A stretch of DNA of 64,000 bases, from assembly GCA_000004695.1 (NCBI GenBank), contig CM000150.2, positions 1,952,001 through 2,016,000 of the forward strand, read 5' to 3'. Numbering within the stretch: the first letter of the stretch is position 1; each line of letters starts with the position of its first letter. The translations under genes and the position numbers were made by a program. The DNA is from Dictyostelium discoideum. Its lineage: Eukaryota. Positions 3,776 through 64,000 of this stretch are shown here, piece by piece. The notes under the pieces are model-generated. The model saw nothing but the letters and a program-made list of their open reading frames with translations, was not told the origin of the DNA and did no database searches.

Positions 3776-3830
<55 letters not shown>

Positions 3831-3833
<3 letters not shown>

Positions 3834-18527: not shown

Positions 18528-18716
18528 ATATTTTTTTTAAGGTTTTTCCATTTAAAAAACAAAAAAAAAAAACCGAAAAAACAAAGAAATAAACGAGAAT
18601 TTATACATATAATAAATAAATCACTGTTATATCTTCACCGCCACATTCATTCCTCTTAATTTTACCCTTTTTTTGCTCAGTAAAGCAAGGGCTATCGTCC
18701 TATATACTTTTCAACA

Positions 18717-23748: not shown

Positions 23749-23892
23749 TTACCTAATCTAAAATAACATACTATTTTAAATTCACAAAAACTAAAAAACC
23801 TAAAATAAATAAATAAAAATAACATACTAGTTGTATACTACAATAGTTTATTTATATCAAAAAAAAAAAAAAAAAAGTTTTTCCATTTGTCG

Positions 23893-45059: not shown

Positions 45060-45196
45060 TATTCAATAAATATGACATATTTGAAATGTTTTTTTTTATT
45101 TGAGTTTTGTCTACAATTTCTCATGGAGCCAACAAGAAATGAAAAATGAAATAATCAAAAAAAGAGATTGTTGTTTGTTGTTTTTTTTGATTTGAA
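45060..45196 (-). mobile_element. TRE5-A 5'-end remnant (ORF1-start fragment fused to an A-module fragment), ending 51 bp upstream of tRNA-Thr.
   Basis: 45096-45120 matches TTTGAGTTTT(A/G)TC(C/T)ACAATTTC at the ORF1 start (3617-3640). 45140-45190 matches the A-module GAAAAATGAAATAATCAAAAAAAGAGATTGTTG. Confidence 0.55.
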
Positions 45197-45246
45197 AAAA
45201 ATATATTTAGTTTTTTTTCTATTATTGATTTTTTTTTTTCAAAAAT

Positions 45247-45364: not shown

Positions 45365-48300
45365 CAAAAAAAACCTTAACAAAACAAAGAAATAAACGAG
45401 AATTTATACATATAATAAATAAATCACTGTTATATCTTCACCGCCACATTCATTCCTCTTAATTTTACCCTATTTTTGCTCAATAAAGCAAGGGCTATCG
45501 TCCTATATACTTTTCAACAATGGCTGATGATCACTCAACTGAATTACAGTTAAATCATACAGATAACAACACAACCAATACAAATAATACCTCCACAACC
45601 TCAACAACAAAAAACAAAAGTGCAAAAATCGACACACCTAAAAAACAAACCCCAACAAACCAATTCTCACTTAACAAAGGACTTGATAAAGTGTTACTTT
45701 AATCAACCATACATCCGTGAAGAATTAACCTCTAAAGATGACACAAGAATTCAACAAATTCACAAAAACATTCACAAACTCTTCGAAGATATACTGTCGC
45801 CATCAGCATTAAAAATAATTGGTGCAACTGCCTTCGTAAATTGCAACGTTGATAAATTAACTTCAATAATCAACCTTCAAAACCAACTTGAACTAAATAT
45901 CGACAAACTCAACTATAGATTCGAAATATCATCAAATGATTATGCAATCATTAAAACATTCATTCAAACGTACTCACCCAAACATGAAAACGATGCAATT
46001 ATAAACAACCTCACCAAATTCACCAGTTGTACATCAATTGAATCATTTACTGTCACATACTCATATGCTGTTGCGTTTAAAAGCTACATTATAACATCAT
46101 CTAATTGATCACACACAACATTGTTGATCAAAAGATCCAACAACCATCTGGTATCACAAGATATATCAAAGCTGCAACACGTAGTGTCACTTAACACAAA
46201 ATTCAACATGCAAAAAATGCAGATATGGCAACAACTATAAAAAATGCTCTCACAACCCAAATATTAACAAAAACAATCAACCACCAAAAAACAACATTAA
46301 CACCCCACCAATCAACGAAATTGCAAATTCCAATCGCAATAATAACCCACTTCAAAATAGTGGTTCAAAAGCTACACTAAATGAACCACTTGAAACCAAC
46401 AATCAATCCCAAAACAATAATGAAATTTCACACAAAAGTGATTCTTCAAATAATAATAACGGGAAAAACTCATTATCAATGAGCAATCCAACCGATCCAA
46501 CAATTGTACCACAAAAACCTCTACAATCCCAACCAAACAAACCAAGTGCACCAACTCCAAATACAATAAATACAAGAAGAAGCAGCAATGCCTTGACTAC
46601 ACAACCAGTCAATACTGGTGCAGCCAAACCTAAACACACTCAACAATTGATGGTAGAGCTATTTTAGCAGACATTATATTTCCAAATCAATTACCAATTG
46701 GTATTCTTGGAATTTACGCACCAGCATCAAATAATACCATCAAAAAGAATTCATATGCAACTTCACTACAAACACTTCTCCACAACCACTCAACAAACCC
46801 AATACCAAACCAATCCCAACATGTATCTATTATCGCAGGAGATTTCAACTGTATCCACAACGACAATTCACTATTAGATGATATTATCCAATCCTACACA
46901 TACCAACACCATCTAATTGATCAAGGTGAATTTAAAAACCTCATACACATGGCAACAGATTAGATAGAATATATACTCAATACAATAGAATAGACCCTGT
47001 ATTCAGCGATGCATTGTTCTTCAAGATGTTTGAATTTTGCTGCTTTTTCTAATAGTATTTGTTTTGCAAGTTGAGTTTGTTTGTCTTTGTTATATTGATA
47101 GTTTTTTAGAGTTTTAATAATTTTTGATTTTACTTTTGACCAATTTGTAAATTGATTGATTGATGTGTTATTGTGATTATTTATTAAATGATTGATAATA
47201 TTGATCGCTTCATGGTCATTTGCAGTACCAGGTGATAATATCCATCTTTTCTTATGTTTATTTATTTGAAAAGGTGAAGAAATTGTTGTTGATATTGGAT
47301 TATGATCTGATAATGAAGATGGAATTTGATGGACTTGTGTATATATGTAACAAAAACAAATTACATCAAAACCACACAAACATATTAAAAAAACATATAA
47401 ATGGAGAAATACCTAGCAAGTATCTATCAGCAATACTAAACAAAAGATCAAAAGATGCAAAAATTGAATCAGTCCAATATGATAACATCATTACATCCGA
47501 TCCCGACCAAATTGAAAATGCGTTTGTTGAATTCTACACAAATCTATATAGCTTACAAATATGTTGTCCAATTACTCACCAGCTCATGCTAAACACATGG
47601 CCCATCATAAAAAAGAATATTGGATGGTTTAGACTCACCATTTATACAAGATGAAGTTGAAGCTGCAATTAAAGACCAAGTTAAACCCATTCTCACTACA
47701 TTATTCAACGATATACTAGAAAATCCTCACCACATCACAACAGAATTCACCGAAGGTCTTATACACACAATATACTAGAAAGGCAACCCCTTACTCATAT
47801 CAAATCGTCGTCCCATTACACTTCTAAACACTGATTACAAAATCCTCTCAAAAGTAATCAATGCACGTCTTCTGAGAATACTTCCTTTCATCATCAACAA
47901 CAACCAAACTGGTTTCGTACCCCACTGACTCATCATAGACAACATCATCAACATCAATGAATTAATCAACTACCTCTAATCTAAAAACCTCCCTGGTATC
48001 ATCACACTATTTGACTTCTTTAAAGCATTTGATTCTATCTCTCACGATAGTATTAAAAGAACATTAATTCATATTGGTATACCAATAAAATTAATAAATT
48101 TAATCCACAAGCTATTATCTGACTCATTAGCAAAAATTTCAATTAATGGTAAAACGACCAGAAAATTCGATATTATAAGAGGTGTAAAACAAGGTGACCC
48201 AATCTCAGCCACTTTATTTGTAATTGTAATTGAAATATTAGCAAGAACAATAAATGCAGACAATACAATAATTGGATTACCAATTTCACCCAATCCACAA

Positions 48301-49535
48301 ATTAAAATCAAATTTACCCAATTTGCAGACGACTCTACAACATACAACATCAACTACGAACAACAACAATCAATCAAACATTTCGATAATTTCTTCAACA
48401 TCATCATTAAATTTTGACAAAAGTGCAATAATAGAAATCGACCCCCACAAAATCACTGATAAACACATAATAAACAACATTCCATAATCAAAAAGAATAC
48501 CAATAACCAAAAAAGATCAATCAGAAAGAGTCCTTGGCTATTTCTTTAATCATAATGGTTTACATAGGAAATTACCAGAAACAATGAAAACACTGATCAA
48601 ATCATTAGTACTATGGTAAAACTAGTGGCACAACATTAAAAACAAAAACAACCATCATAAACACCTACTCACTATCACCAATAACATATTTATCATACCT
48701 TGAAGAATTTACAAAAGATGAAGAAATTCAAATTAATAAATTAATCTCATGGTTTATGAATTCTCCCGCAAATTCTGAATCACCAACTCTCAATACCAAT
48801 TCCATTGAAAACAACACATCAACCACGACAAATTAAAATATTTTATATATAAAAATTGCAATGGAAACAAAAACTGGTCACTAACAAAAAACCAAACAAC
48901 AAAATTAAACACACTCATTTATAAACCACAAACAAACAACAAAGCATTTAAACCAGATCCAACAATCAATATTAATTTTAATTTGCAGAAAACGCACAAT
49001 ATAAAATATACAGGTTCAACTGGAATTATATAAAAACAAATCTTGATCTAGTCAGAACACATGCATATTGGAACATAATCTCATTAGTTATTCACCAAAT
49101 ATGGATATGGTTATGCAAATCATTATTTGACATCAATATAACTCAATCAATTGACAATTGGAACAACCAAATAAACAACACAACACTAGATTATGATATA
49201 TTAAAATCAAAATGGCACAAGCTAATAAGATTGGAATATTCAAGAACATTATCAAACTTTAACCAATACTCAATTAAAAACAACCTCACAAAAACTCAAA
49301 AAGAAACCCAATGGTCCGAAACCATCAAAAAATTTAAAAAAGAATAGAGCATAAACACAAATGAACCAATTCCAACAATTACACCACCAATTAATTATTA
49401 ATTACCTAATCTAAAATAACATACCATATTAAATTCACAAAAACTAAAAAACCTAAAATAAATAAATAAAAATAACATACTAATTGTATACTACAATAGT
49501 TTATTTATATCAAAAAAAAAAAAAAAAAAAAAAAA
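45365..49535 (+). mobile_element. Degenerate TRE3 copy of the same subfamily as 18554-23876. It has multiple frameshifts/stops, a ~275-bp deletion, a 344-bp internal inversion (47000-47343) and a ~0.5-kb 3' deletion. It lies ~50 bp downstream of tRNA-Thr.
   Basis: It is collinear and highly similar to copy 1 from AACAAAGAAATAAACGAGAATTTATACATA to the poly(A). The ORF track shows ORF1/ORF2 broken into pieces, including a minus-strand piece (46960..47379). Confidence 0.8.
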
Positions 49536-49544
49536 TTCAAAAAA

Positions 49545-49600
49545 GTAAAAAAAAACCGAAACAAAGAAATAGTTTATTTTATATCAAAAAAAAAAAAAAA
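49545..49600 (+). mobile_element. Solo TRE3 remnant: the 5' terminus (AACCGAAACAAAGAAATAG) joined to the 3' terminus/poly(A).
   Basis: The same terminal sequences bound the full copies. Confidence 0.35.
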
Positions 49601-49625
49601 AAAAAACAATCAAAACCCAAGGGTT

Positions 49626-49790
49626 CGACTCCCAATAATTAATTTATTTTTTAAAATATTATAATTTTTAAAATATTTTAAAAATAAATTAATTATTGGG
49701 AGTCGAACCCTTGGGTTTTAAGTTTTTCCCTTCAAAATTCACAAAACTTTATTTTTTGAAGGGAAAAACTCAATTTTTAGTTGCCCCTTC
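49626..49790. repeat. Double hairpin: a perfect 41-bp inverted repeat with ~27-nt spacer (49626-49735), then a 15-bp inverted repeat (49737-49790). The large arms contain B-box-like GGTTCGACTCC.
   Basis: The arm AAAACCCAAGGGTTCGACTCCCAATAATTAATTTATTTTTT and its exact reverse complement are both present. TTTTTCCCTTCAAAA/TTTTGAAGGGAAAAA form the second hairpin. Confidence 0.75.
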
Positions 49791-49949
49791 TTGAGATGAA
49801 TCTGATTTAATTAAATAGGTTACAGGTGCCTTTTAAGGTGGTATGGTTTTTTTTGAATTGGATAACGCAATTATTAGTTGCTTCTCCTTGAGATGCTAGA
49901 TCTCATTTTATTGTAATATTTTTTACCAGTTCTCCAAAAGAGGGGTTAG

Positions 49950-49954
<5 letters not shown>

Positions 49955-50001
<47 letters not shown>

Positions 50002-50160
50002 TTTGGAATTTTGAATTGTATTATTACTTTTGATTAAAACATCTTTTTTGTCCAAACTTTTTTCTAAATCTTTTTTTAATTTATCGTCGGCTTCGTGATT
50101 GATGTTGATGACACATTTGAATTGTTTTTTTTTATTTGTGTTTTACCAGGGTCATTTTCG
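49955..50160 (-). mobile_element. TRE5-A-like ORF1 N-terminal fragment with adjacent poly(A) (plus poly-T 49955-49999). It is fused at ~50160 to an unrelated ORF (50076..50294).
   Basis: 50005-50155 is ~90% identical to 3493-3650. Its translation QFKCVININHEADDKLKKDLEKSLDKKDVLIKS matches ORF1. Confidence 0.6.
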
Positions 50161-50299
50161 AAGATAATTTCATCAGAAATACCGATTGATGGACTACTTT
50201 CGTCCATTTTATAGTCGTCTATTTTCTTTTGGGTATTACAGTTTTGTTCTATTTCAACCAAATGTTTTTTATTTGTTCCAGAAGCTTGAGACAATGAAT

Positions 50300-50830
50300 T
50301 GGCTATCTCACAATGAAGACCAAGTGCGGATAGAATAGTTGAAAAGATATTTTAATGATTCTTATATTTTTTATTAAAATTATTTATTTGTTTTATTTAA
50401 AATAGTTGGTGGTTCAATTTGTTTTTTTCTTGTCCAATTTCATCATTTTCTTTTATCACATCACATAATCTAACAATTTTTCCATTTATATACTGAAGAT
50501 TTGTTAATAATTCGGTTCTTCCATTAAAAAATTTTTTTTGATAAAGTTGGTATATTCACTGAGGCTCATACCCTCCATTCCTTGACCAGAAACCATTTTG
50601 CAATCTTTAAAGTAACCTCTTGAGAATTTATAATGATTAAAAAGGATAATGTCAATTATTTTTACCATTTTTTCTTTACAATCGGCTGTGCACACATTAG
50701 GTTAAAACATTGGAAATTCATTTGGATCGGTTAATAACCATAGGTATTTATTCTTATCTTCCTCAGCTTCTTCAACGGAAAGATGTGGGCACTTATTATT
50801 AGCTCTATCTTTCATTATTTAAGTTGTGAC
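50300..50830 (-). pseudogene. Member of the small Cys-containing protein family (paralog of 57231..57689), with an in-frame stop. It is possibly a pseudogene or has an unrecognised intron.
   Basis: The sequence ...DPNEFPMF*PNVCTADCKEKMVKIIDII...FSRGYFKDC resembles ...DQDEFPKIQPGYCTEECKEKMKEIYRITFERY. Confidence 0.4.
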
Positions 50831-51313
50831 TATAAATATGTTTGTGTGATAATGTTTTATTTAATGCTAGTAAAAAATGTTAAAAAAAAATAATAATGAT
50901 AATTTAATTATTATTTAAAATTAAAAAAAAAAAAAAATAGAAAAAAACTTTTTTTTATGATGTTTTTTTTTGAAAATCAAAAATAAAAAAAACCAACACA
51001 AAAAACAACACCAACAGTTTTTTTCTATTTTTTTTTTACAAAAATAGAGACACAGGGAGTTTTTTTTCTTTTCTGCCATTACTTATTTTTTTAGTTTTTT
51101 TTTTAGAAATGCTAGGGTTACCTTCAAACAATAAAAATATTTATTTAATGTATATTTTTATTTATTTTTTTATTTATTTTTATTTTTTTTTTTGAATATA
51201 TAAATACATTTCTTTTTTTTTCATCAAAATAACAAAAAAAAAAAAAATGAAAAAACTATATAGATTATTATTATTCTAATAATTTTTTTATTATAAACAA
51301 AGGGGAGGCATAA

Positions 51314-52460
51314 ATGAGAAGATTGACATCTGCTTTCTATGATCCTCCAGCTTACCCCCATCCTCATACTGGATATCCCATGGGTTTGTTTGCCGGCAAG
51401 AGATAAAGATCAAATTTGTCAAGCACCCGGTATTTATATTTATTTCTCAAATACTCCACGACCTTATCCACCACGATTGGTTTCTCACCCAGTTACACAA
51501 CCTGTTTATTCGATTGGAAAATCAATTAATGATATTAGAAGTAGGGTTAAGGTCCATAGTGAAGATGATTTCCCCCATTTGATTAACACCCTAATGGTTT
51601 GCTAATGAGGTTCCCATGTAATAATGAACGTTCTGATAGTAGACCAAGTTTTTCTGAAGTAGCGTTATTAACAATGTTTGCAACCATTAAAAACTACATT
51701 TTAGGTGTCAAAGATAGTGATATTATAGTTTTTGATGACAATGGAGAACCATTTGATATTTTAAGAACGTTTTATGGAGTTAATAATAATAATCCATTTC
51801 GTACTTCTATTCCTCTCATCCAAGCTAATGGAACTGCTAAATTTGGATTCGATCATATGGTTGATTCCACACTTTAACCATTAGCTCCTCCTTCCATAGA
51901 TGTTATCAATGACACTAAATCAATTTTCCCAATAGGTATTCTATATGAATGTGGAAAACTACTTGATGGAGATTATAGTAATTTTGGTCAAGAAGAATCT
52001 GCCAATGGGGTATGTAACCCATGCAATAGAAAAAAAGAAAGTGAAGAGAAAAAATCAAATCCAATCAAATTCAAAAATCCACCATTATCTTACCGTTTAG
52101 AAATTAGCAATAAGTTTAGTAATTTGGAATATCAAAATGCCAAAGAAAATGGTCTTCTAGGAAAAAGTCTAGTTGAAACAGAAAAGCCATCAAAGCCATC
52201 AAAAGTTGGTCTTTTCACTAGGTTTGGCCGTTGGTAAAGGTCTTTTTGTTCCAGAGAAAAAAAGTAATTCGCTTCCTGGCAAATTCAAAGATAGTAATAT
52301 TGAAATGGTAGAGGTAAATCCTGGAGAGGAACAAATAAGTGAAGCGGCGGGCGTTGAGCATAGTCAAATTAGATATAGAGGCACAAATTACTTTTTTGAA
52401 CTTGGAGAAGCTGCTGAAGAGGCTGCTATGATTATCATATCATATCTTTTTTAATTTCTT
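51314..52460 (+). pseudogene. Paralog of the secreted-protein gene at 63222, broken by frameshifts into three ORFs (51339.., 51599.., 52173..).
   Basis: The sequence TGYP(M/W)..C.AR.KDQICQAPGIYIYFSNTP matches TGYPWVCTRYLDDTKEVVQKECKHPGIYLIFVNSP at 63222. Three different frames are needed. Confidence 0.4.
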
Positions 52461-53125
52461 GCACCTCTTTTACGTGCAAAGTTACCAGGTTTGGGTATAT
52501 ATCATTGAGTTTCTTGTGCAGTTGCATAAGTTCTAATTGGCTCTTGTCTTTCTCTGTTTCTTTGCAATCGTCTTCTTTCACTTTCTTCTTGCATCAACCT
52601 TCTTCTTTCTTCTTGTCCGGCCAATCTTTGTTGTGTTTTTTTAATTTTTTTTAATTTTACCTTTTCAAGATCTGCTTCAATTTCTTTTTTTTGACGGGCA
52701 CCCATCGTTTTTTTTTAAAAAATAAACCTAATGATTTATACTTGGTTATATTTAATAGTTGAGAATTTTTATTTTATGACATTGGTTTTGAATTATTTTT
52801 AAAAAAATCATTTTAAATTTTCTTTGATTCATTACATTTTTATTTCTATCTAATGATTTTATATTAATGATCAATAGAAAATCCAATAGCCACATAGGAA
52901 TTCTATAGAAAATCACTGGGAAATTTTGGTTTGATTACCTTTATAATGGTTATTTTCTAAAGATTTTCTATAGAAAACCATTGGGTAAACAGTTGTTTCT
53001 ATAGGAAATCTTTAGAAAACAATCATTGGAAATCGTTGAATTTTTCCTTTTCTCAATTTTTTAATAGTTTTCTAATGGGTCACATCTATACCGTTATCTA
53101 TTGAAAACCATTCCAACAAAAAAAT
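52445..53125. repeat. Left arm of a ~650-bp inverted repeat. The partner is 56440-57057, ~95% identical. The left arm has an extra ~75-bp internal tandem duplication (TTCTATAGAAAA-CCATTGGG units).
   Basis: A reverse-complement comparison was done by eye. Both arms contain the small basic-protein gene. Confidence 0.8.
52502..52705 (-). CDS. Small basic coiled-coil protein (67 aa) encoded in the left IR arm.
   Basis: It reads MGARQKKEIEADLEKVKLKKIKKTQQRLAGQEERRRLMQEESERRRLQRNRERQEPIRTYATAQETQ. A near-identical paralog sits inverted at 56794. Confidence 0.5.
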   Translation of the reverse strand: MGARQKKEIEADLEKVKLKKIKKTQQRLAGQEERRRLMQEESERRRLQRNRERQEPIRTYATAQETQ

Positions 53126-54939
53126 CTAATGGATTTCGATAAAGCAATATTAAATTATAAAAAATAAAAAAAAAAAAACAATTCAAATAGATGGTTTCAT
53201 TAAAAGAATATTTTAAAAAAGATTAAGGTTTTTATTTTAAAGAATTTTTATATTGATTTCGTAAAGGAAATCATTAAATGTTTTTAAAAAATGGTTTTGA
53301 ATTAAATGATAGCTAAATATTTCTTTACCAAGCTTCTTCAGCTCAATCTTTAATGAGTTCATAACCTTCTTCTGCAGTGATTCTAATTCCATCACCTACT
53401 TCACGTGTAGTATTGCCGATACCATCACCTACATCATGTGCAGTATCACCCCATGCTCATATCTAGATGCATTATCGGAACTTGGAAAAAAAAAGGATTA
53501 TGAACATGGTTTTGATTTCTCTGTTGAATTAAATGAAGATGGTAGCCTTCCAGATTTTCCAAATACTTTAGATCATTAAAACTGATAAAAAAAAAAAAAA
53601 AAATTAAAAAAAAAAAATAAAGATCATTACATAAACAAAACCAATTAAGGTTTTATTTTTTTTATTTTTATTGTTATCATTTTTTTTTTTAATTTATTGG
53701 AATCAATTTGGTATTCGATTTCAGCAGCAGCAATATATTCTTTTTTGGTATTCATTATTTCATTTTAAAAAAAAAAAATTAATAAAACATTATTAATATT
53801 TTTTTTTTAAAAATAGTTTTTTTTTTTTTTTTGAAATAGAATTAAAAAAAAAATTTAAGGAACTGGGATATTATTAACCATTATTCTTTTAGTACATATT
53901 TTTTTAATGGTGATTTTTTTTCCTCTCAAAAAGGTGCTAGTTAAAAAAAAAAAAAAAATAAAAAAAAAAAAAAGAAAAGCATTGATTAAAAATTTCATTG
54001 CCATAAAAATTAAATTGTCTTAGTTGGCACCTGAGATATTTTTTTTTTTTAAAAAAAAAAATTTTTTGATTGATTGGAAGATATTTTTTTTTTTTCCTTT
54101 TTTTTTTTTGGTAATTATTAGACAACCACAAACTCAAAGAGAGATTTACACAATAATTTATGATATTGCTTGTCCACATATACCAGGTACGGAGAATCCA
54201 AAATCATCTTTTAAATTTATGGACAGGTCCCATCTTCTTTAGGTTTTAATGATGCATAAAGCATTGCAGTACTCTTGTATTTGTCAAAAGATTCTACCAA
54301 ATCGGAGATATATTCGGCCGTGCTGCCATCAGGAATCTCTAAATCAAAAAGTGGTTCATATGTTCTCCAATCATTTAAATCATCTGAGAAATTCATATTC
54401 CGTTGCTTTTTTATGTGAGTTTTACTTGTTTTTTTTTTTCAAATTTTCATTTTATTTTTTTTTTTTATTTTTTTTTTTTCCAAATAAAAAAAATGTTTTT
54501 CGAATTTTTATTTTATTTTATTTTTATTTTTTTTATTTTTTTATTCTTTTATTTTTGTAATGTTGATGAATGATTGAATTAAAAATATAATTTACAAAAT
54601 TTTAATAAACTTATTTTTTTCAAGTTTTATTTTTATTCTTATTTTTATTTTTTATTTTTTAATTTTTTTTTATTTTATTTTTTTTATTTTTATTTTTATT
54701 TTTTTTTTTATTTTTTTATTTATTTTTTTTATTTTATTTTTTTATTTTTTGTAATATTAATGAATAATTGAATTAAAAATAATATACAAAATATAAACTT
54801 ATTTTTTCAAGTTTTTATTTTTATTTTTTTCTTTTTTTCTTTTATTTTTTTTATTTTTTTTTTTTTATTTTTATTATCTTTTTTTATTATTTTATTTTTT
54901 ATTTTTTTTTCCATTTTTATGTATTTTCCTATTTTCTAT

Positions 54940-56261
54940 TTTAAATTTGATATTATGAAATTTTTCCACATTTCTAAATTAATATTATTTTTTTTGTTTA
55001 TTTTTATAAATTTTTGTAAATGTCAACGTTTTGTTGGTACTCTTCCTCCTCAAAGAATAAGTGAAATTGTTAATTTTCAATGGAATAATGATATTATGTT
55101 TATAAACAGAGGTAGAAACAGATGGCCGGATATAGAACCCTTTGATGGAAACGGAGTTTATTTCGTATTTAGGCGAATGTTCAAATCATAATGTTTCTTA
55201 GAAATTTTGAACCTCCTAAGGCTGTTCATATGGAAACTTGGTTTCTTTCTGTTTTTGGATGTCCTTATAATAGCATAATTGAAGGAGGTTTAGGTGTAGC
55301 AGCATCAGGATATGGTGCAGGTGGATGGGTTAACTTCTTTAACACTGCTGATAGACAAGATGTTGTTGACTATATTCTCACCGAGACCCTTACAAGACCT
55401 GCTGACTTTTTAGATCACCCAAATTATCCTCGTGCTCCATCAATCATCAGAAAAATAGATGAATGCGAGCAAAACCTCACAAACTTACAAAACCAAATGG
55501 TGAGCCAGCAAACTAATATTGCGGATCTTCAAACACAAAATACAAACCTACAAACTCAAGTGACTAATCTCCAGAATCAAGTAACAGATCTTCAAAATCA
55601 ACTCCAAACTCATCAAAGTGGAAATAACTTTATGGCTGAGACACTCATTTTGGCACTTCTCAAATACAATGGACCGAGTCTAATTGTTTCAAATCCACTT
55701 CTTCGTGGTTGGTATGAAGCAAGAAAAAATGGTGGTGGTGGTGGTGGCAAGTGTGGTATCGGTGGTGTTGGTGATGGTAAGAATGGTGACGGCAAAAACG
55801 GTGACGGTAAAAACGGTGCGGATGGTGCAGATGGTGCAGATGGTTAGTTAAAATCTGGCTGTACTTGTCCAGAAACCCCTCCCTGTCCAGTAGTAATTCC
55901 ATGCCCAGAGCCAGTGGTTTGTAATATAGCAAAAATTCAAATTCAATTGAATTCAACCATAAAAAGTTTGGATGAATGCAAAAAACAAAAGGACCAAACC
56001 AATGATGACCTCAACGTCTGCAAGTCCCATAAAGATGAGATACAAGATTGGCTCACCGACTGTCAAAAAGAATATGTTAAACAAACAAGTCATTCATCCA
56101 AAGATGATACTCTAATTTCTCTCAGAAACTGCCAAGCCGAATACAGAAAAGAAACATTCAAAAAAGATAAGCTCTGCCGTGGTTTGTCCAAACATATCAT
56201 TGGTTATTTAGATTTCTGTGAAGATAAGGTAGAAAAGCTGAGACTCGCTAATTGTGAATAG
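54940..56261 (+). CDS. Secreted protein gene between the IR arms: signal peptide, N/Q/T heptad coiled coil, (GDGKN)n/(GAD)n Gly-rich segment, Cys-rich C-terminus. It has a probable intron at ~55165..55220 and an in-frame TAG at 55845.
   Basis: Three collinear + ORFs cover the region: 54919.., 55191.., 55914... The signal peptide is MKFFHISKLILFFLFIFINFCKC. The coiled coil reads LTNLQNQMVSQQTNIADLQTQNTNLQTQVTNLQNQVTDLQNQLQT. Confidence 0.5.
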
Positions 56262-56439
56262 TTTTCTCATTTTTTTAAAAAAAAAAAAACAAAAAAAAAA
56301 AAAATCATACAATGATTTCCCTTTATGAAATCAATAAAAAATTCTTTAAATAAAATTTTTAATCTTATTTTAAAAAAATTCTTTTAATGAAATCCATTAT
56401 TTTCATTTTTTATAATTTTATTGAACTTTATTGAAAATA

Positions 56440-57057
56440 ATTAGATATTGTTATTTCCAATGGTTTTAGATTGATAACGGTATAGATGTGACCATTACAT
56501 AGAAAACTATTAAAAATTGAGCCAAAGAAAAATCAACGATTTTTAATGGTTGTTCAAAGATTTCCTATAGAAACCATTATTTACCCTATGATTCTCTATA
56601 GAATTCCTAGCTAATGGATTTTCCAATGACCATTAATATAAAATCATTAGAAAGAAACAAAAATGTAACGAATCAAAGAAAATTTAAAATGATTTTTTTA
56701 AAAATAATTCAAAACCAATGTCATAAAATAAAAATTCTCAATTATTAAATATAAACATGTATAAATCATTAGGTTTATTTTTAAAAAAAAACGATGGGTC
56801 CCCGACAAAAAAAAGAAATTGAAGCAGATCCTGAAACGGTCAAATTAATTAAAATTAAAAAAGCACAACAAAGAATGGCTGAACAAGAAGAAAGAAGAAG
56901 GTTGATGCAAGAAGAAAGTGAAAGAAGACGATTGCAAAGAAACAGAGAAAGACAAGAGCCAATTAGAACTTATGCAACTGCACAAGAAGCTCAAAGATAT
57001 ATACCCAAACCTGGTAACTTTGCACGTAAAAGAGGTGCAAGAAATTAAAAAAAGAAA
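56440..57057. repeat. Right arm of the inverted repeat (partner 52445-53125).
   Basis: Landmark matches include ATAACGGTATAGATGTGACC vs GGGTCACATCTATACCGTTAT. The coding segments correspond. Confidence 0.8.
56794..57048 (+). CDS. Small basic coiled-coil protein (84 aa) encoded in the right IR arm.
   Basis: It reads MGPRQKKEIEADPETVKLIKIKKAQQRMAEQEERRRLMQEESERRRLQRNRERQEPIRTYATAQEAQRYIPKPGNFARKRGARN. Confidence 0.5.
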   Translation: MGPRQKKEIEADPETVKLIKIKKAQQRMAEQEERRRLMQEESERRRLQRNRERQEPIRTYATAQEAQRYIPKPGNFARKRGARN

Positions 57058-57230
57058 AAAATAAAAATAATTAAAAGAAATAAAAAAAAAAAAAAAAATT
57101 AAAAATTAAAAATTTAAAAAAAAAAAAATAAACTAGATCTCTTATATAAGAGTTATAAAAAAAAAAATAAAAGTAAAATAAAATAAAAAAATTTAAAACA
57201 GTTCTTTTTATTTAATTAACACTTTTTTTT

Positions 57231-57689
57231 CTATTCATCTTCTTCAGAATCAGGTAGGTTTTTTGCATCAAAATCACATTGTACACCAGGTGGCAATTCA
57301 CATAATCTAACAGGCTTTCCATCTTTAATACCAACTTTCATTGCTTTTATGACCATTCTAGCATATTCATCTTGGGGAGAGATAGGGGGTGGAGTACTGA
57401 AAAATTCTCGATACATCCAAATATCACATCCTCGAGGATTTTTTCCCAAGTTATATTCAAAAATTCTGCTGTCACTGTAATATTTGTTTATAGTCTCAAT
57501 ATAACGTTCGAATGTTATTCTATAAATCTCCTTCATTTTTTCTTTACATTCCTCTGTGCAGTAACCAGGCTGAATCTTTGGAAACTCATCTTGATCTAGT
57601 AATTCATCAAGGTAAAGAGTGAAATCTTCACTTTTTTTAAGCTTTCTTAAAGAAAATTCATCATGTTGGCAACAATATTTACTTGTCAT
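57231..57689 (-). CDS. Small Cys-containing protein (152 aa), the intact member of a local paralog family.
   Basis: The ORF is complete. The conserved skeleton C..HD.FS..KLKK...EFP.I...C..ECK.KMKEIYRITFE.Y is shared with 50300-50830 and with the Tdd-4-split gene. It has an acidic tail. Confidence 0.55.
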   Translation of the reverse strand: MTSKYCCQHDEFSLRKLKKSEDFTLYLDELLDQDEFPKIQPGYCTEECKEKMKEIYRITFERYIETINKYYSDSRIFEYNLGKNPRGCDIWMYREFFSTPPPISPQDEYARMVIKAMKVGIKDGKPVRLCELPPGVQCDFDAKNLPDSEEDE

Positions 57690-57982
57690 TTTTATTTAAA
57701 ATTATACGTTATTAAATAAATAAAAAATAAATTAAAAAAAAAAATGGGTTAAAAATTGAAGTAAAAAAAAAAAAAATGAAAAAAAAATGAAAATAAAAAT
57801 TATTGACTTTTTTCCCACAGAAATGAGAAAAATAAATGAAATAAATAAAGACAAAAATAGAAAAAAAAAAACAAATTTTTTTAAAATGGGTGTAATTTTT
57901 ATATAATTTTTTATTTTTATTAATGGCTAATGGTGCGACAAGGGTAAGGGCTACAGTATGCAGTAATGGTGGCTATTCATCA

Positions 57983-58195
57983 TCACTCTTCTTCTTTTGA
58001 TTCACTTTCTCCTTCTGAATCGGTTAGACCAGTTGTTTCAATTTCTACATCTACACCCCTTGGCACGTCACATAATCTAACTAGTTTACCATTAAGTATT
58101 CCCGCTTTCATAGTTTTTAAAATACTATCACGGTACTCCGGATCAATCTTCTCCTCTTCTAAACAATCATTGTATGTCTGACAGCCAACTGTCAT
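57983..58195 (-). pseudogene. C-terminal half of a family member disrupted by the Tdd-4-like insertion (…MTVGCQTYNDC…KLVRLCDVPRGVDVEIE…EEE*).
   Basis: It lies immediately adjacent to the left TIR/TSD. It aligns with the C-terminal half of 57231..57689. Confidence 0.6.
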
Positions 58196-58341
58196 TGTTG
58201 TAGGGAATTTTCCATAAAATTTCACTACAGTAGCGTAGTGAATTTTATTATTTAATTTCACTACAGTAGCGTAGTGAAAAAAAAAAATCACTGACCTTAA
58301 ATTTTTTTTTTTTTCAAAAAACAAATAAAGTTTATTAAATT
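58196..58341. repeat. Left TIR of the Tdd-4-like element.
   Basis: It is the reverse complement of 62654-62799, with 4 small differences over 146 bp. Confidence 0.85.
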
Positions 58342-58398
58342 GAAATTTTATTTTTTGTTTTAATTATTATTTTATTTATTTTTATTATAATTATTGTT

Positions 58399-58438
<40 letters not shown>

Positions 58439-58879
58439 CAATTTTTTTTTTTTAAATTTTTTTCAATTTTTATTTGTTTATTAAATTGTAATTTTATTTT
58501 TTGTTTTAATTATTATTTTATTTATTATTATTGTTAATTTTTTTTTTTTTTCAATTTTTTTTTTTTTAATTTATTTTTATTAATTTATTTTTATTAACTC
58601 CCTGAGTTGTTCAATTGCTTGATTTACCATATCACTGTAAACACTGCACACAATTGAATTTTTTCTAGCTTTGTTACCTCTGGTGCATTTGATGTTTTTG
58701 CATTTTCACAGCGAAGAAAAAACCACCTTTAAATTCGCTTTAAATTAAATTTAAATTTGCTTTAAAGTCCTGAATTAAAGCAATTTTAAAGGTAATTTTA
58801 AAGGTAATTTATAAGGTTACTTTAAAATCACCTTAAAAATTACCTTTAAAATTACCTTTAAAATTACCTTTTTAATGGC

Positions 58880-59035
58880 TTTAAAAGCGAGGTCCTGAGT
58901 TCGAAGCCGTTATTTAACGGATAAATTTTTTAAAATTTTTTTTTTAATTTTTCAAAAATTACCAAAAGGGATTCGATCCCCCGACCCTCTATCAAAGGGT
59001 AGTCTCATCAACCATTACACCATTTGATTGCTTTG
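58880..59035. other. tRNA-like remnants (T-arm/B-box-like GAGTTCGAAGCC and GGATTCGATCCC; a Gln/Ile-like D/anticodon segment on the minus strand) inside the Tdd-4-like element, flanked by 12-bp tandem repeats (ACCTTTAAAATT)n.
   Basis: Partial cloverleaf elements but no complete acceptor stem. The flanks 58740-58870 and 59120-59420 are degenerate direct repeats. Confidence 0.3.
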
Positions 59036-59974
59036 ATGAAAAATTTAAAAATGATAGAATATTTTATCCCCATTTTTTTTTTCTAAAATTAGATCTTTTT
59101 TATTAAAAACCTTAAATTTATGTTTAAAGGAAATTTAAATTCACTTTAAATCTACTTTAAATATACTTTAAATCCTATTTAAAATTAATTTAAAATAAAT
59201 TTTAAAGGTATTTTTAAATATCTTAAAAATTATCTTAAAAATTACCTTAAAAATTACCTTTAAAATCACCTTTAAAATCACCTTTAAAATTGCTTAAAAA
59301 TTTATTTTAAAGCAAATTTTAAAGGCATTTTTAAATATCTTAAAAATTACCTTAAAAATTACCTTAAAAATGAATTTTTTAAACGCGGCTTTAAATTCAA
59401 TTTAAATCCAATTTAAATCAACTTTTCTTTAAATTTGCTTTAAAGGTGCATTTTTCTTTGCTGTGTTCCTTTGTATACAAAAAAGTCCAAATATAATTCG
59501 TTTTCTATTACAGTTTTTACACAATGTTGGTGAAATTGTTTTGATTTTAATTCTAATGCTTCTAACATCATATTTGGATTTTTAACGATTAAAGCATCAC
59601 CACTATTTACATATAGTACTTTGGCTGCTTTTTCGAGGAATTTAGTCAAATTTTCCTCTGAATCTAACTATTCTTCATTGCCATATTCAATGGCTAAATT
59701 TCTTAAGAGTTTTATCGAATCTATTAATTCTTCGATCATTCTTTTTTTTTGAAATTTTTTTTTATTTTGTTTTTTCAATTTTTTTTTTTTATTTTGTTTT
59801 TTCAATTTTTTTTAAGTTTTATTTTTTTTTATTTTTTTTTATTTTTTTTAACAAATGTAATTTTTTTTTATTTTTTTCAATTTTTTTTTTTTTTAATTTT
59901 TAATTTTTTTTTTTTTTTTTAATTTTTTGTGTTGATTTGTGTTTTTTTTGTTTTTTTGATTTGGCCACTTGTTT

Positions 59975-60961
59975 TTATTTTCTAATTTCCCCATACCCCC
60001 TTCTATTAATTGCAACCAAATCAAGTTCTAATTTTTGTGTCCTTGTTAACTTTGTTTTTGCAACTTTTTTTGAAGGTATCACATTAACGATTTTTCCTAT
60101 TGATGGTGATTTGGAAGGTGATTTAAATGGTGATTTAAAAGGTGAATTGGAAGGTGATTTAAATGGTGAATTGGAAGGTGAAATGGATGGTGATTTGGAA
60201 GGTGATTTAAATGGTGATTTGGAAGGTGATTTAAATGGTGATTTAAATGGTGAATTGGAAGGTGAAATGGATGGTGATTTGAGAGGTGATTTGGATGGTT
60301 TAGAATGTGATTTTAAAGGAGGTTTATTAACAATTGGTATCTTATGAGGACGGCCTCTGAGACGTTTAACAGTTGTTACTATACCACTACCAGATTGTGG
60401 TATAGTATACGATGGTATTATTTGCACTTGAGGTATTGGTGGTACTATTTCTTTTAAATTCATATCCTTTCTCAAACAATTCATTAAATTTGGCGCTGTT
60501 GGATTATTATTTAAAAATGGGAGTATTTCTTCTTGTTCCATTTCATTATTGAGTTTGTGTTGAAATGGATTATCGTTAATGATAGGTGGAATATTTGATG
60601 GATTGTTAAGAGCATCTTCCAAAACCCTAAATGGATCATTTTGTGTTACCAATTGATGCAAGTTGAAATTGGATAAATCCTTACCAAGATTTTTAATAAA
60701 CTGAACCAGAAATTCAATAACTTTCCCATCATTATTTAAATAAAGACCAGAAGTAAAAGAATCAATATCTTTTTGTATGTTTGGCGATGTTCTAAAAATA
60801 TCAACTGTTGATTGTTTATAAAGAACCAACTTGTTACCTCCTACAAAACCAGAGTATAAACCTTTTTTTTGAAGGCTATTGATTCCATCTTCCAAAAATT
60901 CAAGTTTATAAAGTTGTTTAGTGTCTTCCTGTATTACCTTATGAATTTTACACAAAATCAA
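59975..60961 (-). CDS. Transposon-internal ORF (328 aa) with an AT-hook (RLRGRPHK) and 14 tandem SPxK/SPFK repeats, likely DNA-binding.
   Basis: The ORF is complete. The tail reads KSPLKSPSISPSNSPFKSPFKSPSKSP..., which is histone-H1-like SPKK. Confidence 0.5.
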   Translation of the reverse strand: MILCKIHKVIQEDTKQLYKLEFLEDGINSLQKKGLYSGFVGGNKLVLYKQSTVDIFRTSPNIQKDIDSFTSGLYLNNDGKVIEFLVQFIKNLGKDLSNFNLHQLVTQNDPFRVLEDALNNPSNIPPIINDNPFQHKLNNEMEQEEILPFLNNNPTAPNLMNCLRKDMNLKEIVPPIPQVQIIPSYTIPQSGSGIVTTVKRLRGRPHKIPIVNKPPLKSHSKPSKSPLKSPSISPSNSPFKSPFKSPSKSPFKSPSKSPSISPSNSPFKSPSNSPFKSPFKSPSKSPSIGKIVNVIPSKKVAKTKLTRTQKLELDLVAINRRGYGEIRK

Positions 60962-61031
60962 TATTTTCTATTAGAATTAAATATAAAATTTGTTAATTAT
61001 TACTGTTTCATATATTATTAATCTTTATGTT

Positions 61032-62268
61032 TTAATTACTTACATTATTTTTTTTAATTTCTAGAAAGAGTACAGTATCACCAACTTTCAATCCCTTTGG
61101 TGGTTTTGAATTCCATTGATTTTGGTAACTTGTGAGATTTTCAAGAATAATAGCTGTTCTTTCTTCTTTTGAAACATCTGAAACACCAATTGATTGAGAG
61201 TCTTGTTCTGATTGAACATTAATAAACAAAGGAACAATACCAACAGCTTGAGATGGTGTCATTTTAATTGTTCTTGTTTTTGTATTATTGTAATCATACA
61301 AAGCTTGTTTTAATAGTTCAGAAAGAGACCTAGAAGTACCATCAAGAAAACTAAAATTTATTTATAAATGATTAATTAATAAACATATCGATAATTTATA
61401 TTGTTCACAATATCATACTCTTGTTGTTTTAATTTTGAGATCCTCTCCTTGATAGTTCGATTCAATCTTTCTACCATACCTTGAGTTGTTGGTGTACGAG
61501 GAGCTCCATGTGCTGACTTGGAGCCTGGAAAAAGTTTTAGGAATTCTTTTTGGACTTTGTTTTTAAATTCACGTCCATTATCGCAGTGCCATACTTTCAC
61601 AGGTTTGCCAAAGTACGTGAGAGCCAAAAAATTGTATATGGGAACTGTTCTCTTTGTTGTCAAACATCTAAAAAATAAATGATAATTAAAATAAAAAAAG
61701 AAAACTAATAAATTAATAAATAAAAAATAAATACCTTCCAGTAGCAAATTTTGTAAAAGAATCTATGCATAGAATAATGTAAACAACATCGGTGTCGTAC
61801 GGTTGTACAGAGTCATATTGGATAAGATCATCTAGTTTAGTTAGTATCTTTTCATTATCATCATCGTATGTAACTTTTTCTTTATGTTCACCTTTAATTG
61901 ATGTTAAATCATAAACCAATCTTGAGTATTCCTCGGTATCTACAATTGGAGCAAAATCCTTTGTTATACCTATTAATTTATTTAAATTATTAAAAGAGTT
62001 TTAATATAAAAGTTACAAAACATCATATAAAAATGATTGATACCAAACCTTTTATTCTATTTCGTTGGCAAATGTCACACGTATCTACTGCATCAGATAC
62101 AAAAGAATACAATCCCATATTATAATATTTAGTCTTGTAGTTCCCATAGGTTGCATCTCTTCCTATATGACCTTTATGCATTTCTTCCCAGAGTGATACC
62201 ATTCTATAATCATTAATTACTTCTAAACACACTTCTTTTGATATATTTCTATCTCCGCCACAATTCAT
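61032..62268 (-). CDS. Retroviral-type (c-)integrase gene of the transposon. Exons in order: HHCC zinc finger (62023..62268), DDE core part 1 (61713..61919), DDE core part 2 (61376..61747), C-terminal GDTVLF domain (61032..61301). Intron boundaries are not resolved.
   Basis: The zinc finger is H-x2-H ... C-x2-C (HKGHIGRDATYG...CDICQRNR). The catalytic D's are DTDVVYIILCID and HCDNGREF. The catalytic E is PRTPTTQGMVERLNRTIKE. Confidence 0.7.
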
Positions 62269-62487
62269 GACTTTTTTTTCAATTCTAAATAATTTTTCTT
62301 TTCTGTTTCTGTTTTTTATTGGTCAGAATTTAAAAAATGATTGTGTTATTGTAAGGAAAAATATTTACTCATCATGTAAAAATTTATAATTTTTATGTTT
62401 AGTATTTTCAAAATTATTATCTTCAATAAATTTTAAATAATTTATAATTTCATTTATTTTATCTTGTTTCATTTTGGGAAAATGAAA

Positions 62488-62522
<35 letters not shown>

Positions 62523-62653
62523 TGTTGGGGAAAAAAAAAAAAAGTTTTGGCGCAAAAAAAAAAAAAAAAATAAAATAAAAAAAAAAAAAAATAAAATAAA
62601 AAAAAAAAAAAATAAAAAAACTTATATAGAACTAATAATCAAATAAAAGATAA

Positions 62654-62799
62654 TAATTTAATAAACTTTATTTGTTTTTTGAAAAAAAAAAAATTTAGGG
62701 TCAGTGATTTTTTTTTTTCACTACGCTACTGTAGTGAAATTAAATAATAAAATTCACTACGCTACTGTAGTGAAATTTTATTGAAAATTCCCTACAACA
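62654..62799. repeat. Right TIR of the Tdd-4-like element.
   Basis: As above. Confidence 0.85.
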
Positions 62800-63056
62800 G
62801 TCATTATTGGTGGGTCTGGGAAACTTTTGAATATTTTACAATCATCATAGTAATTATTAACTGCCTTGAGATATCCTTCGAAAGTTATCCTATAAATTTC
62901 TTTCATTTTTTTTTTACATTCTTTTGTACAGAGTCTATTTATCTCAGGGAATCTATCCTGGTCAAATAATTTATCATCGTATAAAAAGGGGCCAAGTTTT
63001 TTAAGGTTTTCTATTGAAAAGCGGTCATGTCCGCATCCACCTACTTTTCTCAACAT
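62800..63056 (-). pseudogene. N-terminal half of the same disrupted family member (MLRKVGGCGHDRFSIENLKK…KIFKSFPDPPIMT).
   Basis: It abuts the right TIR/TSD. Joining it to 57983..58195 across the TSD restores a full-length homolog. Confidence 0.6.
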
Positions 63057-63221
63057 AATTTGTTGTGTGAAAATAAAAAAAAAAATTAAAAAAATAAATT
63101 AAAAAATAAATTAAAAAAAAATTAAAAAAAATAAATTAAAAAAATAAAAAATAAAATTTAAGTTTTTATTCATCTATAAAAACACAAAAAATTTTGATAA
63201 TATTAATAATTATAATTAAAA

Positions 63222-63446
63222 ATGTTTAACAGACTGTTATATCTATATTTTTTATTAGCTTTATATTTTAACCATATCCATTGCCTGGAAAAATATGCGT
63301 CGAAATTTTACAGACCACCAACAGCAGTACACAGACAAACTGGTTACCCATGGGTTTGTACAAGATATTTGGATGATACTAAAGAAGTGGTACAAAAAGA
63401 ATGCAAACACCCGGGTATATATTTAATTTTTGTAAATTCACCATAG
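63222..63446 (+). CDS. Secreted small protein (signal peptide MFNRLLYLYFLLALYFNHIHC) whose 3' region is interrupted at ~63473 by a second TIR element.
   Basis: The ORF is complete. It is a paralog of the frameshifted 51314-52460 gene. Confidence 0.45.
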   Translation: MFNRLLYLYFLLALYFNHIHCLEKYASKFYRPPTAVHRQTGYPWVCTRYLDDTKEVVQKECKHPGIYLIFVNSP

Positions 63447-63472
63447 TCTACCTCTTTGGTTAATTTGTTCCA

Positions 63473-63696
63473 TACACCTATGTTGTAGGGAATTTTTTTT
63501 GAAATTTCGCTTTCTAAACGGCAGTGAATTTTTACACTAAAATACACTGTTTATGCATGGTGTAAAAATTCACTAAATTTTTTTTTTTTTATAATTAAAT
63601 TAAAAAACAATTTATTTAATCAGAAAAATAAAAAACCAATTTTATTCAGTTATTTGCTTGTTATTTATTTTTTTATAACAAAAAAATTTAGTTTGC

Positions 63697-63754
<58 letters not shown>

Positions 63755-63837
63755 CAATTATTTTTTTCAATTTTTTTTTTTATCGATTGTTTCATTTTTG
63801 GGGAATAAAATAAAATTGTTCGATAAAAAAAAAATTG

Positions 63838-63900
<63 letters not shown>

Positions 63901-64000
63901 GGTTTATATTTTAATTATGGTATTCATTATTGTTTATATAATTATTTTTAGTATTTATATTATTTATAATTATAAACTCGAGTTAATAGAATTATTATTA
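63473..64000. mobile_element. Terminus of a second DNA-transposon-like element. It shares the 16-bp Tdd-4 terminus TGTTGTAGGGAATTTT, then diverges: a 14-bp-stem hairpin GTGAATTTTTACAC...GTGTAAAAATTCAC, then long poly-T/poly-A. It runs off the window.
   Basis: The shared terminal 16-mer and the subterminal palindrome are seen directly. The other end is outside the window. Confidence 0.45.

Follow-up and report, generated by a model that had tools for sequence, protein, structure and literature searches.

A head-to-head gene pair with a GIY-YIG-like, signal-peptide-bearing member is decaying in a transposon-rich locus of Dictyostelium discoideum

Secreted nuclease toxins of the GIY-YIG (URI) fold with small immunity genes beside them are established in bacteria, as in the Tox-URI1 and Tox-URI2 toxins and their immunity (Imm) proteins (Zhang et al. 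2012, PMC3482391). In Dictyostelium itself, the tgrB1/tgrC1 allorecognition genes form a divergent, co-evolving pair in a rearrangement-prone, transposon-rich and strain-variable locus (PMC12745789). Here, we describe a gene pair with likenesses to both. It lies in a stretch of 64,000 nucleotides of D. discoideum DNA (GenBank assembly GCA_000004695.1, contig CM000150.2, positions 1,952,001 to 2,016,000 of the forward strand), which we call the window. One partner encodes a small, leaderless protein with conserved cysteines (the small family); the other, head to head with it, encodes a signal-peptide protein with a divergent GIY-YIG nuclease domain (the Sec family). Both families are without a name, a Pfam domain or a paper, and the pair has not been described before. 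It is an uncharacterised two-gene module of the dictyostelid host that varies between strains in presence, copy number and integrity, and in the lineage of the laboratory strains AX4 and AX2 the cluster in the window is decaying.

Judging by sequence, the Dictyostelium pair and the bacterial systems would both set an exported GIY-YIG-fold nuclease beside a small cytosolic protein, and they share multiple diverged cognate pairs, variation among strains and orphan copies that resemble immunity genes. However, the Dictyostelium pair is eukaryotic and head to head, whereas in bacteria toxin and then immunity gene follow one another in an operon. Sec carries an ordinary endoplasmic reticulum (ER) signal peptide in place of the delivery modules of bacterial toxins (type II, type V or type VI secretion systems, T2SS/T5SS/T6SS, or RHS), and no Imm family matches the small protein in sequence. 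Within the wider GIY-YIG (URI) superfamily (T4 EndoII, R.Eco29kI, the UvrC N-domain and I-TevI), the strands that bear the GIY and YIG motifs line up with those of Sec, as do the Arg, His/Asn, Glu and Asn positions. By contrast, Sec is negative for the Pfam model PF01541, has an insert that stretches the GIY-to-YIG interval to 20–24 residues, adds an N-terminal module, a signal peptide and cysteines, has an acidic isoelectric point (pI) and is restricted to Dictyostelia. Sec is a new, lineage-restricted branch of GIY-YIG proteins, set apart by its signal peptide, N-terminal extension, long GIY-YIG loop and fixed partner gene. To our knowledge, there is no precedent for a eukaryotic secreted GIY-YIG nuclease, nor for a conserved partner gene beside one. 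The logic that we propose below would be analogous, with no homology, to that of barnase and barstar, of the colicin DNases and their Im proteins, and of the RNase A family and ribonuclease inhibitor. In the tgrB1/tgrC1 pair, both partners are large membrane or surface proteins, and Tgr proteins have an immunoglobulin fold; the pair described here instead joins a nuclease-fold signal-peptide protein to a small leaderless one.

The window holds two such pairs, A and B, an additional small gene and a further relic. Their parts, and the insertions and fusion that touch them, are as follows, with the basis of each call in brackets; L numbers denote related loci and P numbers database proteins.

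50400–50815, minus strand: S3, small-family pseudogene of the 136-amino-acid (aa) subtype (tblastn against intact orthologs in L006 and L007)
50816–51247, no strand: head-to-head spacer of pair A, AT-rich (sequence reading)
51248–52454, plus strand: SecA, pseudogene of the signal-peptide GIY-YIG-like family, P0017/P0018 subtype (tblastn to P0018)
53445–53573, plus strand: fourth small-family relic, S5 subtype, C-terminal 43 codons (tblastn and hidden Markov model, HMM)
57231–57689, minus strand: S1, intact small-family gene, 152 aa (open reading frame, ORF; exact protein in AX2)
57983–58195, minus strand: S2, 3′ half (in silico joining to 62805–63056)
58196–62799, no strand: Tdd-4-type (Ginger2/Tdd) DNA transposon in S2 (inverted ends, GTCAT duplication)
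62805–63056, minus strand: S2, 5′ half (in silico joining to 57983–58195)
63057–63221, no strand: head-to-head spacer of pair B, 165 bp (sequence reading)
63222–63446, plus strand: SecB, first 74 codons, from signal peptide to GIY motif (alignment to the L002 ortholog P0009)
63447–63482, minus strand: deoxynucleoside kinase (dNK) fragment, 36 bp, fused to SecB (match to the L002 dNK)
63483–64000 and beyond the window, no strand: second, non-autonomous element with Tdd-4-like termini (TGTTGTAGGGAATT) (lies within the dNK fragment)

A preliminary description of the window had reported a small minus-strand gene followed by a plus-strand secreted-protein gene at two sites, and SecA (51248–52454) and SecB (63222–63446) do stand head to head with small genes. 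The paralogy that it assumed is borne out by alignment: S1 and S2 share 45% identity (BLASTP E = 1e-33), S1 and S3 match at E = 4e-11, and with values of 1e-33 to 1e-9 among the three, the resemblance of S1, S2 and S3 is not due to chance. SecA and SecB are likewise paralogs (BLASTP E = 3e-12). It was also right that the copy at 57231, whose ORF is undamaged over 57231–57689, is the only intact one. The small gene that it counted as a separate copy at 62800 is there, but is half of one gene with 57983–58195. As causes of damage, the in-frame stop, the frameshifts and the Tdd-4 insertion stand, but the second element with terminal inverted repeats (TIRs) does not, SecB having been cut at a deletion junction with dNK.

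Pair A is dead by point lesions. In S3, residues 1–97 of the 136-aa orthologs from L006 and L007 align at 50531–50815 and residues 99–136 at 50418–50528 in a different frame (tblastn), and the lesions are a Gln-to-TAA stop and one frameshift. The match of SecA to P0018, an intact protein of 380 aa, is broken into four pieces that lie in shifting frames (75–90% identity, tblastn E = 2e-138). SecA carries at least five disabling lesions: its leader contains stops, its frame shifts at ~51379, 51603 and 52240, a stop interrupts it at 51875, and its terminal four codons are replaced at a rearrangement junction with a repeat arm described below. The spacer between the two genes (50816–51247) is presumed to be a bidirectional promoter.

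Pair B is dead through the Tdd-4 insertion in its small gene and a deletion that fuses its Sec gene to the neighbouring dNK gene. When the transposon is excised in silico and one GTCAT is kept, S2 becomes an uninterrupted ORF of 154 aa that is 91% identical to the intact ortholog in L002, with a ratio of non-synonymous to synonymous divergence (dN/dS) of 0.19. The nucleotide alignment of SecB to its intact L002 ortholog (P0009) ends at ~nt 230 (tblastn E = 4e-31), and 34 of 35 nt of the adjoining fragment match positions 465–500 of the L002 dNK. The upstream part of dNK resumes beyond the second TIR element in AX2, and the Pfam dNK call was made in L002 and L004. Because the SecB match ends at ~63446 and the TIR element sits in dNK, it was the deletion fusing SecB to dNK, not the element, that cut the gene. 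Two gene models from other strains have comparable joins: in P0008, the same “VIPPID” position is where dNK meets an S1-type gene, and in P0068, a Sec gene is joined to the dNK C-terminus. The three dNK junctions mark either a recurrent breakpoint or artefacts of gene prediction.

The remaining small gene, S1, is left partnerless, as neither the Sec HMM nor tblastn found a Sec-family match beside it. Its protein is identical to AX4 DDB_G0268734 (P0039, the same locus) and has an exact match in assembly GCA_054883475.1 (contig JBTAPE010000039.1, ~2.97 Mb). We treat this assembly as AX2, an assignment based on its encoding exact AX4 proteins. It is 99.5–99.7% identical to the window, which agrees with the AX4-to-AX2 identity quoted in PMC12745789 and makes AX4 chromosome 1 the most likely source of the window; the assembly apparently comes from the assembly set deposited with that study, which includes the laboratory strain AX2-214. 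All three S1-type loci fetched from AX2 (that of the window, L005 and L008) are without a Sec partner, their products match AX4 proteins, and no AX4-named protein appeared among the Sec database matches. The relic at 53445–53573 is 74% identical to residues 86–128 of the L002 S5 protein (tblastn E = 2e-16) and is weakly recognised by the family HMM (E = 0.007). A further frameshifted small-gene copy is found in AX2 at L001 887–1262, within the ~4.5 kb by which L001 extends past the end of the window.

We also considered the plus-strand gene at 54919–56261 as a third Sec copy. It resembles Sec at 19% identity, but the Sec HMM gives no match and this candidate was rejected. Its product is a signal-peptide protein that has an Asn/Gln-rich coiled coil, a repeat rich in Gly and, towards the C-terminus, a part rich in Cys. 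The gene lies between the two inverted arms described below, and introns or lesions interrupt its reading frame at 55189 and 55847.

Intact pairs were found in related loci. In “cf. discoideum” (L002), three intact head-to-head pairs stand in tandem with an extra small gene, and D. dimigraforme (L004) has two pairs and extras. Two wild D. discoideum strains (L006 and L007) carry intact SecA-type pairs, flanked by a GNL3-type GTPase gene on one side and by the PheRS and V-ATPase A genes on the other; in L007, a tandem second copy has a degenerate Sec. In D. purpureum, pairs occur at two loci (L003 and L011), one of them between PTEN-like phosphatase and WD40 genes, and the neighbours of the L003 pair are PTEN-like, WD40 and kinase genes. 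The head-to-head layout recurs in at least nine pairs, with spacers of 165–460 bp save for a truncated Sec gene model in L006. The Sec homolog of Cavenderia fasciculata has no member of the small family within 5 kb, and for this reason we claim pairing for group-4 Dictyostelium only.

Both partners have diverged together. Across eight pairs, the identity matrices of the small proteins and of the Sec domains are strongly correlated (Mantel r = 0.95, permutation p ~6e-4); the matrices mirror each other. It follows that the two genes are duplicated and diverge together as one unit, of which there are at least four old subtypes. In pairwise comparisons, dN/dS was 0.15–0.6 for both genes, with one pair above 1 on ~10 substitutions, which indicates functional genes under constraint. 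Between L006 and L007, the SecA/S3 pair has dS values of 0.17 and 0.06–0.10 and dN values of 0.03–0.06, against a dS of 0.018 and a dN of 0.002 in the adjacent PheRS gene. The silent-site divergence of the pair between these two wild strains is thus 3–10 times that of its neighbour.

By inspection, we saw neither TIRs nor obvious direct repeats at the boundaries of pair A or of the block that contains S1; the breakpoints fall within coding sequence or at arbitrary points. The intact pairs in related loci among unique genes, the constraint and the lack of element ends together identify a host module rather than a transposon. This decides between the two options that the preliminary description had left standing. 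A host gene family in a transposon-rich region it is, with pairs conserved in other loci and species under purifying selection, and the idea that the pair belongs to a larger uncharacterised repeat is not supported, no TIRs or obvious direct repeats having been seen by inspection, with the caveat that S1 and an adjoining 84-aa gene recur as a block at 93.7% identity. The label “fast-evolving” is partly right, fitting the dS of the pair between the two wild strains (0.06–0.17 against 0.018 for PheRS). Nor is the unit unique to this locus, which had been named as the observation that would undo the description: intact pairs exist in D. purpureum, D. dimigraforme, “cf. discoideum” and wild D. discoideum.

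Behind an N-terminal signal peptide, Sec proteins have a GIY-YIG nuclease domain that is divergent, spans ~180 residues and contains conserved cysteines. Full-length members have a Lys-rich n-region and a hydrophobic core of 12–18 residues (KD19 1.2–2.0), and an extra N-terminal module, FYxPPxxPHPQTGYPWVC, precedes the GIY-YIG domain. Several subtypes add a second, Gly/Ala-rich hydrophobic segment (KD19 1.7–2.2) and a variable tail; this segment could be a membrane anchor or an insertion motif. An exhaustive profile search of 1.84 billion representatives returned 32 proteins at E ≤ 1e-3, and the members whose source we looked up come from Dictyostelium species and Cavenderia fasciculata. The weakest match (E = 3e-4) was to P0069, whose score of 32.1 bits on the Pfam model PF01541 (cut-off 22.6) marks it as a canonical GIY-YIG protein. 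When the 19-sequence Sec alignment was compared to P0069 with hhalign, the match had 84% probability (E = 7.6e-6), and GIY was paired with GVY and YIG with YIG, along with Arg, His, Glu and Asn positions.

For P0009, which is the intact SecB ortholog, an AlphaFold model reached a predicted local distance difference test score (pLDDT) of 75.8, exceeding 80 over most of residues 20–200, and a predicted template modelling score (pTM) of 0.74. The input was the 19-sequence alignment; a 10-sequence version gave a pLDDT of 52 and was not used. The predicted structure agrees with the GIY-YIG alpha/beta fold, which is a three-stranded sheet between helices. The catalytic columns are largely kept (15–19 of 19 overall; Arg in 16/17, Glu in 17/19 and Asn in 19/19), as are two Tyr in nearly all members, one of them occasionally Trp. 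We hold the structural conclusions with high confidence. The small partners, 120–155 aa long and acidic (pI 4.9–5.6), have no leader or hydrophobic segment. Residues C7, H9, D34, F36, P37, C44, C48, K49 and K51 are invariant, and the CxH…CxxxC tetrad may be a metal site, with zinc as the candidate ligand.

Scans with Pfam, NCBIfam and PADLOC gave no match for either family, and IMG/VR viral contigs held no relatives of the small protein or Sec. Sequence searches of the PDB returned nothing for the Sec profile and only noise (E ≥ 0.08) for the small-protein profile. All database members of both families are annotated “hypothetical protein”, and a literature search for “GIY-YIG” with “Dictyostelium” returned nothing on the Sec family.

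Taken as a whole, the explanation towards which we lean is a host head-to-head module, decaying here, in which Sec is a nuclease and the small protein its guard. The mechanism itself is more tentative, since we infer secretion, nuclease activity and the guard role. Sec would enter the secretory or endolysosomal route, where low pH would neutralise its acidic surface and allow it to cut nucleic acid, such as bacterial or foreign DNA, away from the cytosol. The small partner, co-expressed and itself cytosolic, would bind and neutralise any Sec that reached the cytosol or nucleus, and the orphan S1-type copies would fit a pattern in which the antidote outlives the toxin. The layout is that of toxin and immunity genes, in that the genes are adjacent and co-inherited, only Sec has a leader and the partners co-diverge.

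Several observations weigh against a nuclease with a guard. The catalytic His is present in only 10 of 17 Sec members and is otherwise Asn, Asp or Lys, including in the SecB subtype; the P0017 and P0018 types keep it. The motifs G[IVL]Y and Tyr/Trp + [IV]G are conserved, but a loop insertion holds them 20–24 residues apart, whereas the usual spacing is 10–11 residues, and the Pfam model PF01541 does not match Sec even at E ≤ 1. Sec domains are mostly acidic (pI 4.6–6.3), an uncommon property in enzymes that bind DNA, except where these act at low pH. An inhibitor in the cytosol would ordinarily have no contact with a protein that enters the ER during its translation, and co-divergence is expected from joint duplication alone and is no proof of physical interaction. 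A full-text search with four AX4 gene ids found no papers.

Most of the same evidence could also be read as a selfish toxin-antidote or kin-conflict module. Here the target differs: Sec would be a delivered nuclease toxin against amoebae or bacteria and the small protein its specific antidote, with pair polymorphism arising from arms-race or drive dynamics and laboratory strains retaining antidote-only copies. The bacterial precedent of secreted URI-fold toxins beside small immunity genes speaks for this, as do the co-divergence of cognate subtypes, the differences among strains in presence and integrity of the pairs, and the orphan S1 copies, which AX2 keeps intact, as does AX4 to judge from protein identity; the Gly/Ala-rich segments of several subtypes might be membrane-insertion modules. 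The excess silent divergence over PheRS between the two wild strains (3–10 times) would also suit an arms race, although it may stem from a comparison of paralogs. Yet dN/dS is below 1 overall, the sole pair above 1 rests on ~10 substitutions, no delivery mechanism is evident, and PADLOC and NCBIfam are without a match, and we consider such a module unlikely. If the two genes were instead functionally unrelated neighbours on a shared bidirectional promoter, with the GIY-YIG domain a dead scaffold in, for example, an adhesion or matrix protein, then the variable His, the acidic domains, the missing Pfam match and the long, repetitive, variable C-terminal tails would be accounted for. What makes this more doubtful still is that nearly all members of a family whose depth reaches Cavenderia retain both Tyr as well as Arg, Glu and Asn, and that head-to-head pairing has persisted through at least four ancient subtype duplications and in three species.

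Two further explanations would make the pair mobile. A free-standing gene of the homing-endonuclease kind, whose GIY-YIG product cuts the chromosome so that the unit spreads and rearranges by break repair, would explain the dispersed and degenerate copies and the dNK fusions. GIY-YIG homing endonucleases, I-TevI among them, have this fold, the dNK breakpoint recurs in the window and in the chimeric models P0008 and P0068, and a 1.5-kb block with S1 has been copied elsewhere at 94% identity. However, the cleavable-looking signal peptide of all full-length members and the conserved cysteines would keep the protein from nuclear DNA, the pairs keep their places among housekeeping genes from strain to strain and evolve under purifying selection, the block that moved (S1 with the 84-aa basic-protein gene) is without a nuclease gene, and the chimeras may be prediction artefacts. 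We therefore rate a homing gene as very unlikely. The thought that the pair is cargo or part of a larger transposon or viral insertion, perhaps polinton-like, draws on a locus full of mobile DNA (a non-LTR retrotransposon, that is, one without long terminal repeats, up to 49533, the Tdd-4 copy and the Tdd-like element), on the recurrence of cluster parts elsewhere, and on GIY-YIG nucleases with fused or separate zinc-ribbon proteins in virophages and polintons, with homologs reported in dictyostelid polintons (PMC3671162). It is largely refuted, and we give it hardly any credence: pair A and the S1 block show no TIRs or obvious direct repeats by inspection and break inside coding sequence, the pair sits among unique genes in D. 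purpureum and wild D. discoideum, searches of IMG/VR turned up no relative of Sec or of the small protein, and genes for a capsid, a polymerase or an integrase do not accompany the pair.

With the GIY-YIG domain recognised, a lineage-specific family that varies among strains of a major model organism now has a function that can be tested. If the partners are nuclease and guard, or toxin and antidote, the pair bears on how a bacterivorous social amoeba handles foreign DNA or competitors, and would explain why the reference laboratory strain has wrecked pairs and orphan small genes. It is conceivable, though improbable in our view, that these pairs are the dictyostelid counterpart of the bacterial polymorphic nuclease-toxin/immunity systems, comprising secreted and sometimes membrane-inserting GIY-YIG nucleases with cognate cytosolic zinc-binding antidotes. 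If so, the pairs would serve amoeba-bacteria or amoeba-amoeba conflict and turn over among strains, and AX4 and AX2 would have lost the toxins at the loci examined while keeping several antidote-only genes. The window holds the wreckage of the system, and its worth lies in directing attention to the intact pairs of wild strains such as CR116C and OT3A. The annotation of the AX4 locus is also corrected in three respects: the gene split by Tdd-4, the Sec/dNK deletion junction and an inverted duplication of a basic-protein gene.

This duplication consists of two arms, between pair A and S1.

52445–53285, minus strand: left arm, with an 84-aa basic-protein copy at 52454–52705 that has a premature TGA (self-BLAST)
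56301–57052, plus strand: right arm, with an intact 84-aa basic-protein gene at 56794–57048, tail-to-tail with S1 (self-BLAST)

Self-BLAST aligned 52447–52932 with 57052–56571 at 93% and continued at 77.5% to 53285/56301. The 84-aa ORF is Lys/Arg/Glu-rich (MGPRQKKEIEAD...ARKRGARN), unannotated and without a Pfam match. It is kept in L002 (two copies), L004 and L005, always adjoining cluster members, with dN/dS of 0.13–0.19, and is probably a real small gene. We considered the inverted repeat (52447–53285 / 56301–57052) as a TIR element and rejected this, as it is a duplicated gene-bearing segment that occurs singly in other loci. Together with S1, the convergent 84-aa gene forms a 1.5-kb block (56257–57788) that recurs at L005 7899–9419 with 93.7% identity, its AT-rich non-coding sequence included. 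L005 is on another contig of the same genome and carries DDB_G0277457. No transposon ends are visible at the block, and one of its ends coincides with the stop codon of the neighbouring gene at 54919–56261. A third solo S1-type gene, DDB_G0279121, adjoins a retrotransposon (L008).

The mobile elements in the window, which has a G+C content of ~22%, are of already known kinds. The insertion in S2 (58196–62799) is of the Tdd-4 type, with long TIRs starting in TGT, a 5-bp target duplication, an integrase-like transposase and a length near 3.8 kb. Its inverted ends (58196–58500 / 62799–62479) are ~300 bp long and 82% identical by self-BLAST, its termini begin TGTTGTAGGG, and GTCAT flanks it at 58191–58195 and 62800–62804. 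In AX2, an integrase H2C2/rve gene was called within the element, which is ~3.83 kb long there without a nested insert; the published Tdd-4 is 3,839 bp with a 5-bp duplication (PMC2836005). TGT termini, long inverted ends, a 5-bp duplication and a Gypsy-integrase-like gene are shared with Tdd-4/Tdd-5 (Ginger2/Tdd), two elements that are indistinguishable here without a reference sequence, and this likeness concerns the insertion alone and not the gene pair. The second TIR element occupies L001 3369–4982 in AX2 (1.6 kb), with inverted termini and a TAGGT(G) duplication.

Nested in the Tdd-4 copy at 58708–59444 is a 737-bp insert that is missing from the otherwise 99.5%-identical AX2 copy. It has imperfect inverted ends of 51 nt (58707–58757 / 59415–59465) and TTTAAA-type repeats with an 11–12-bp period throughout, and is either an insertion like a miniature inverted-repeat transposable element (MITE), polymorphic between laboratory strains, or a palindromic stretch collapsed in one assembly. 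A tRNA-like string at ~58960–59035 is not a tRNA gene, as ARAGORN gave no tRNA on 49000–64000.

A small conserved ORF (…LVEIEQNCNTQKKIDDY…) adjoins the cluster in three genomes, at 50076–50294 (minus strand) in the window, L002 18698–19030 and L004 2167–2493; in model P0020, it is joined to a Sec gene. Further from the pairs, non-LTR retrotransposon copies lie at 18576–23876 and 45378–49533, the complete length being ~5.3 kb, with reverse transcriptase and endonuclease/exonuclease/phosphatase domains. Both are 96–98% identical to each other and to the copy beside DDB_G0279121 (L008 8740–13998). Finally, a tandem array of 199-bp units at 3805–4698 (~4.5 copies, 98–99% identical) is akin to short stretches at 45139–45218.

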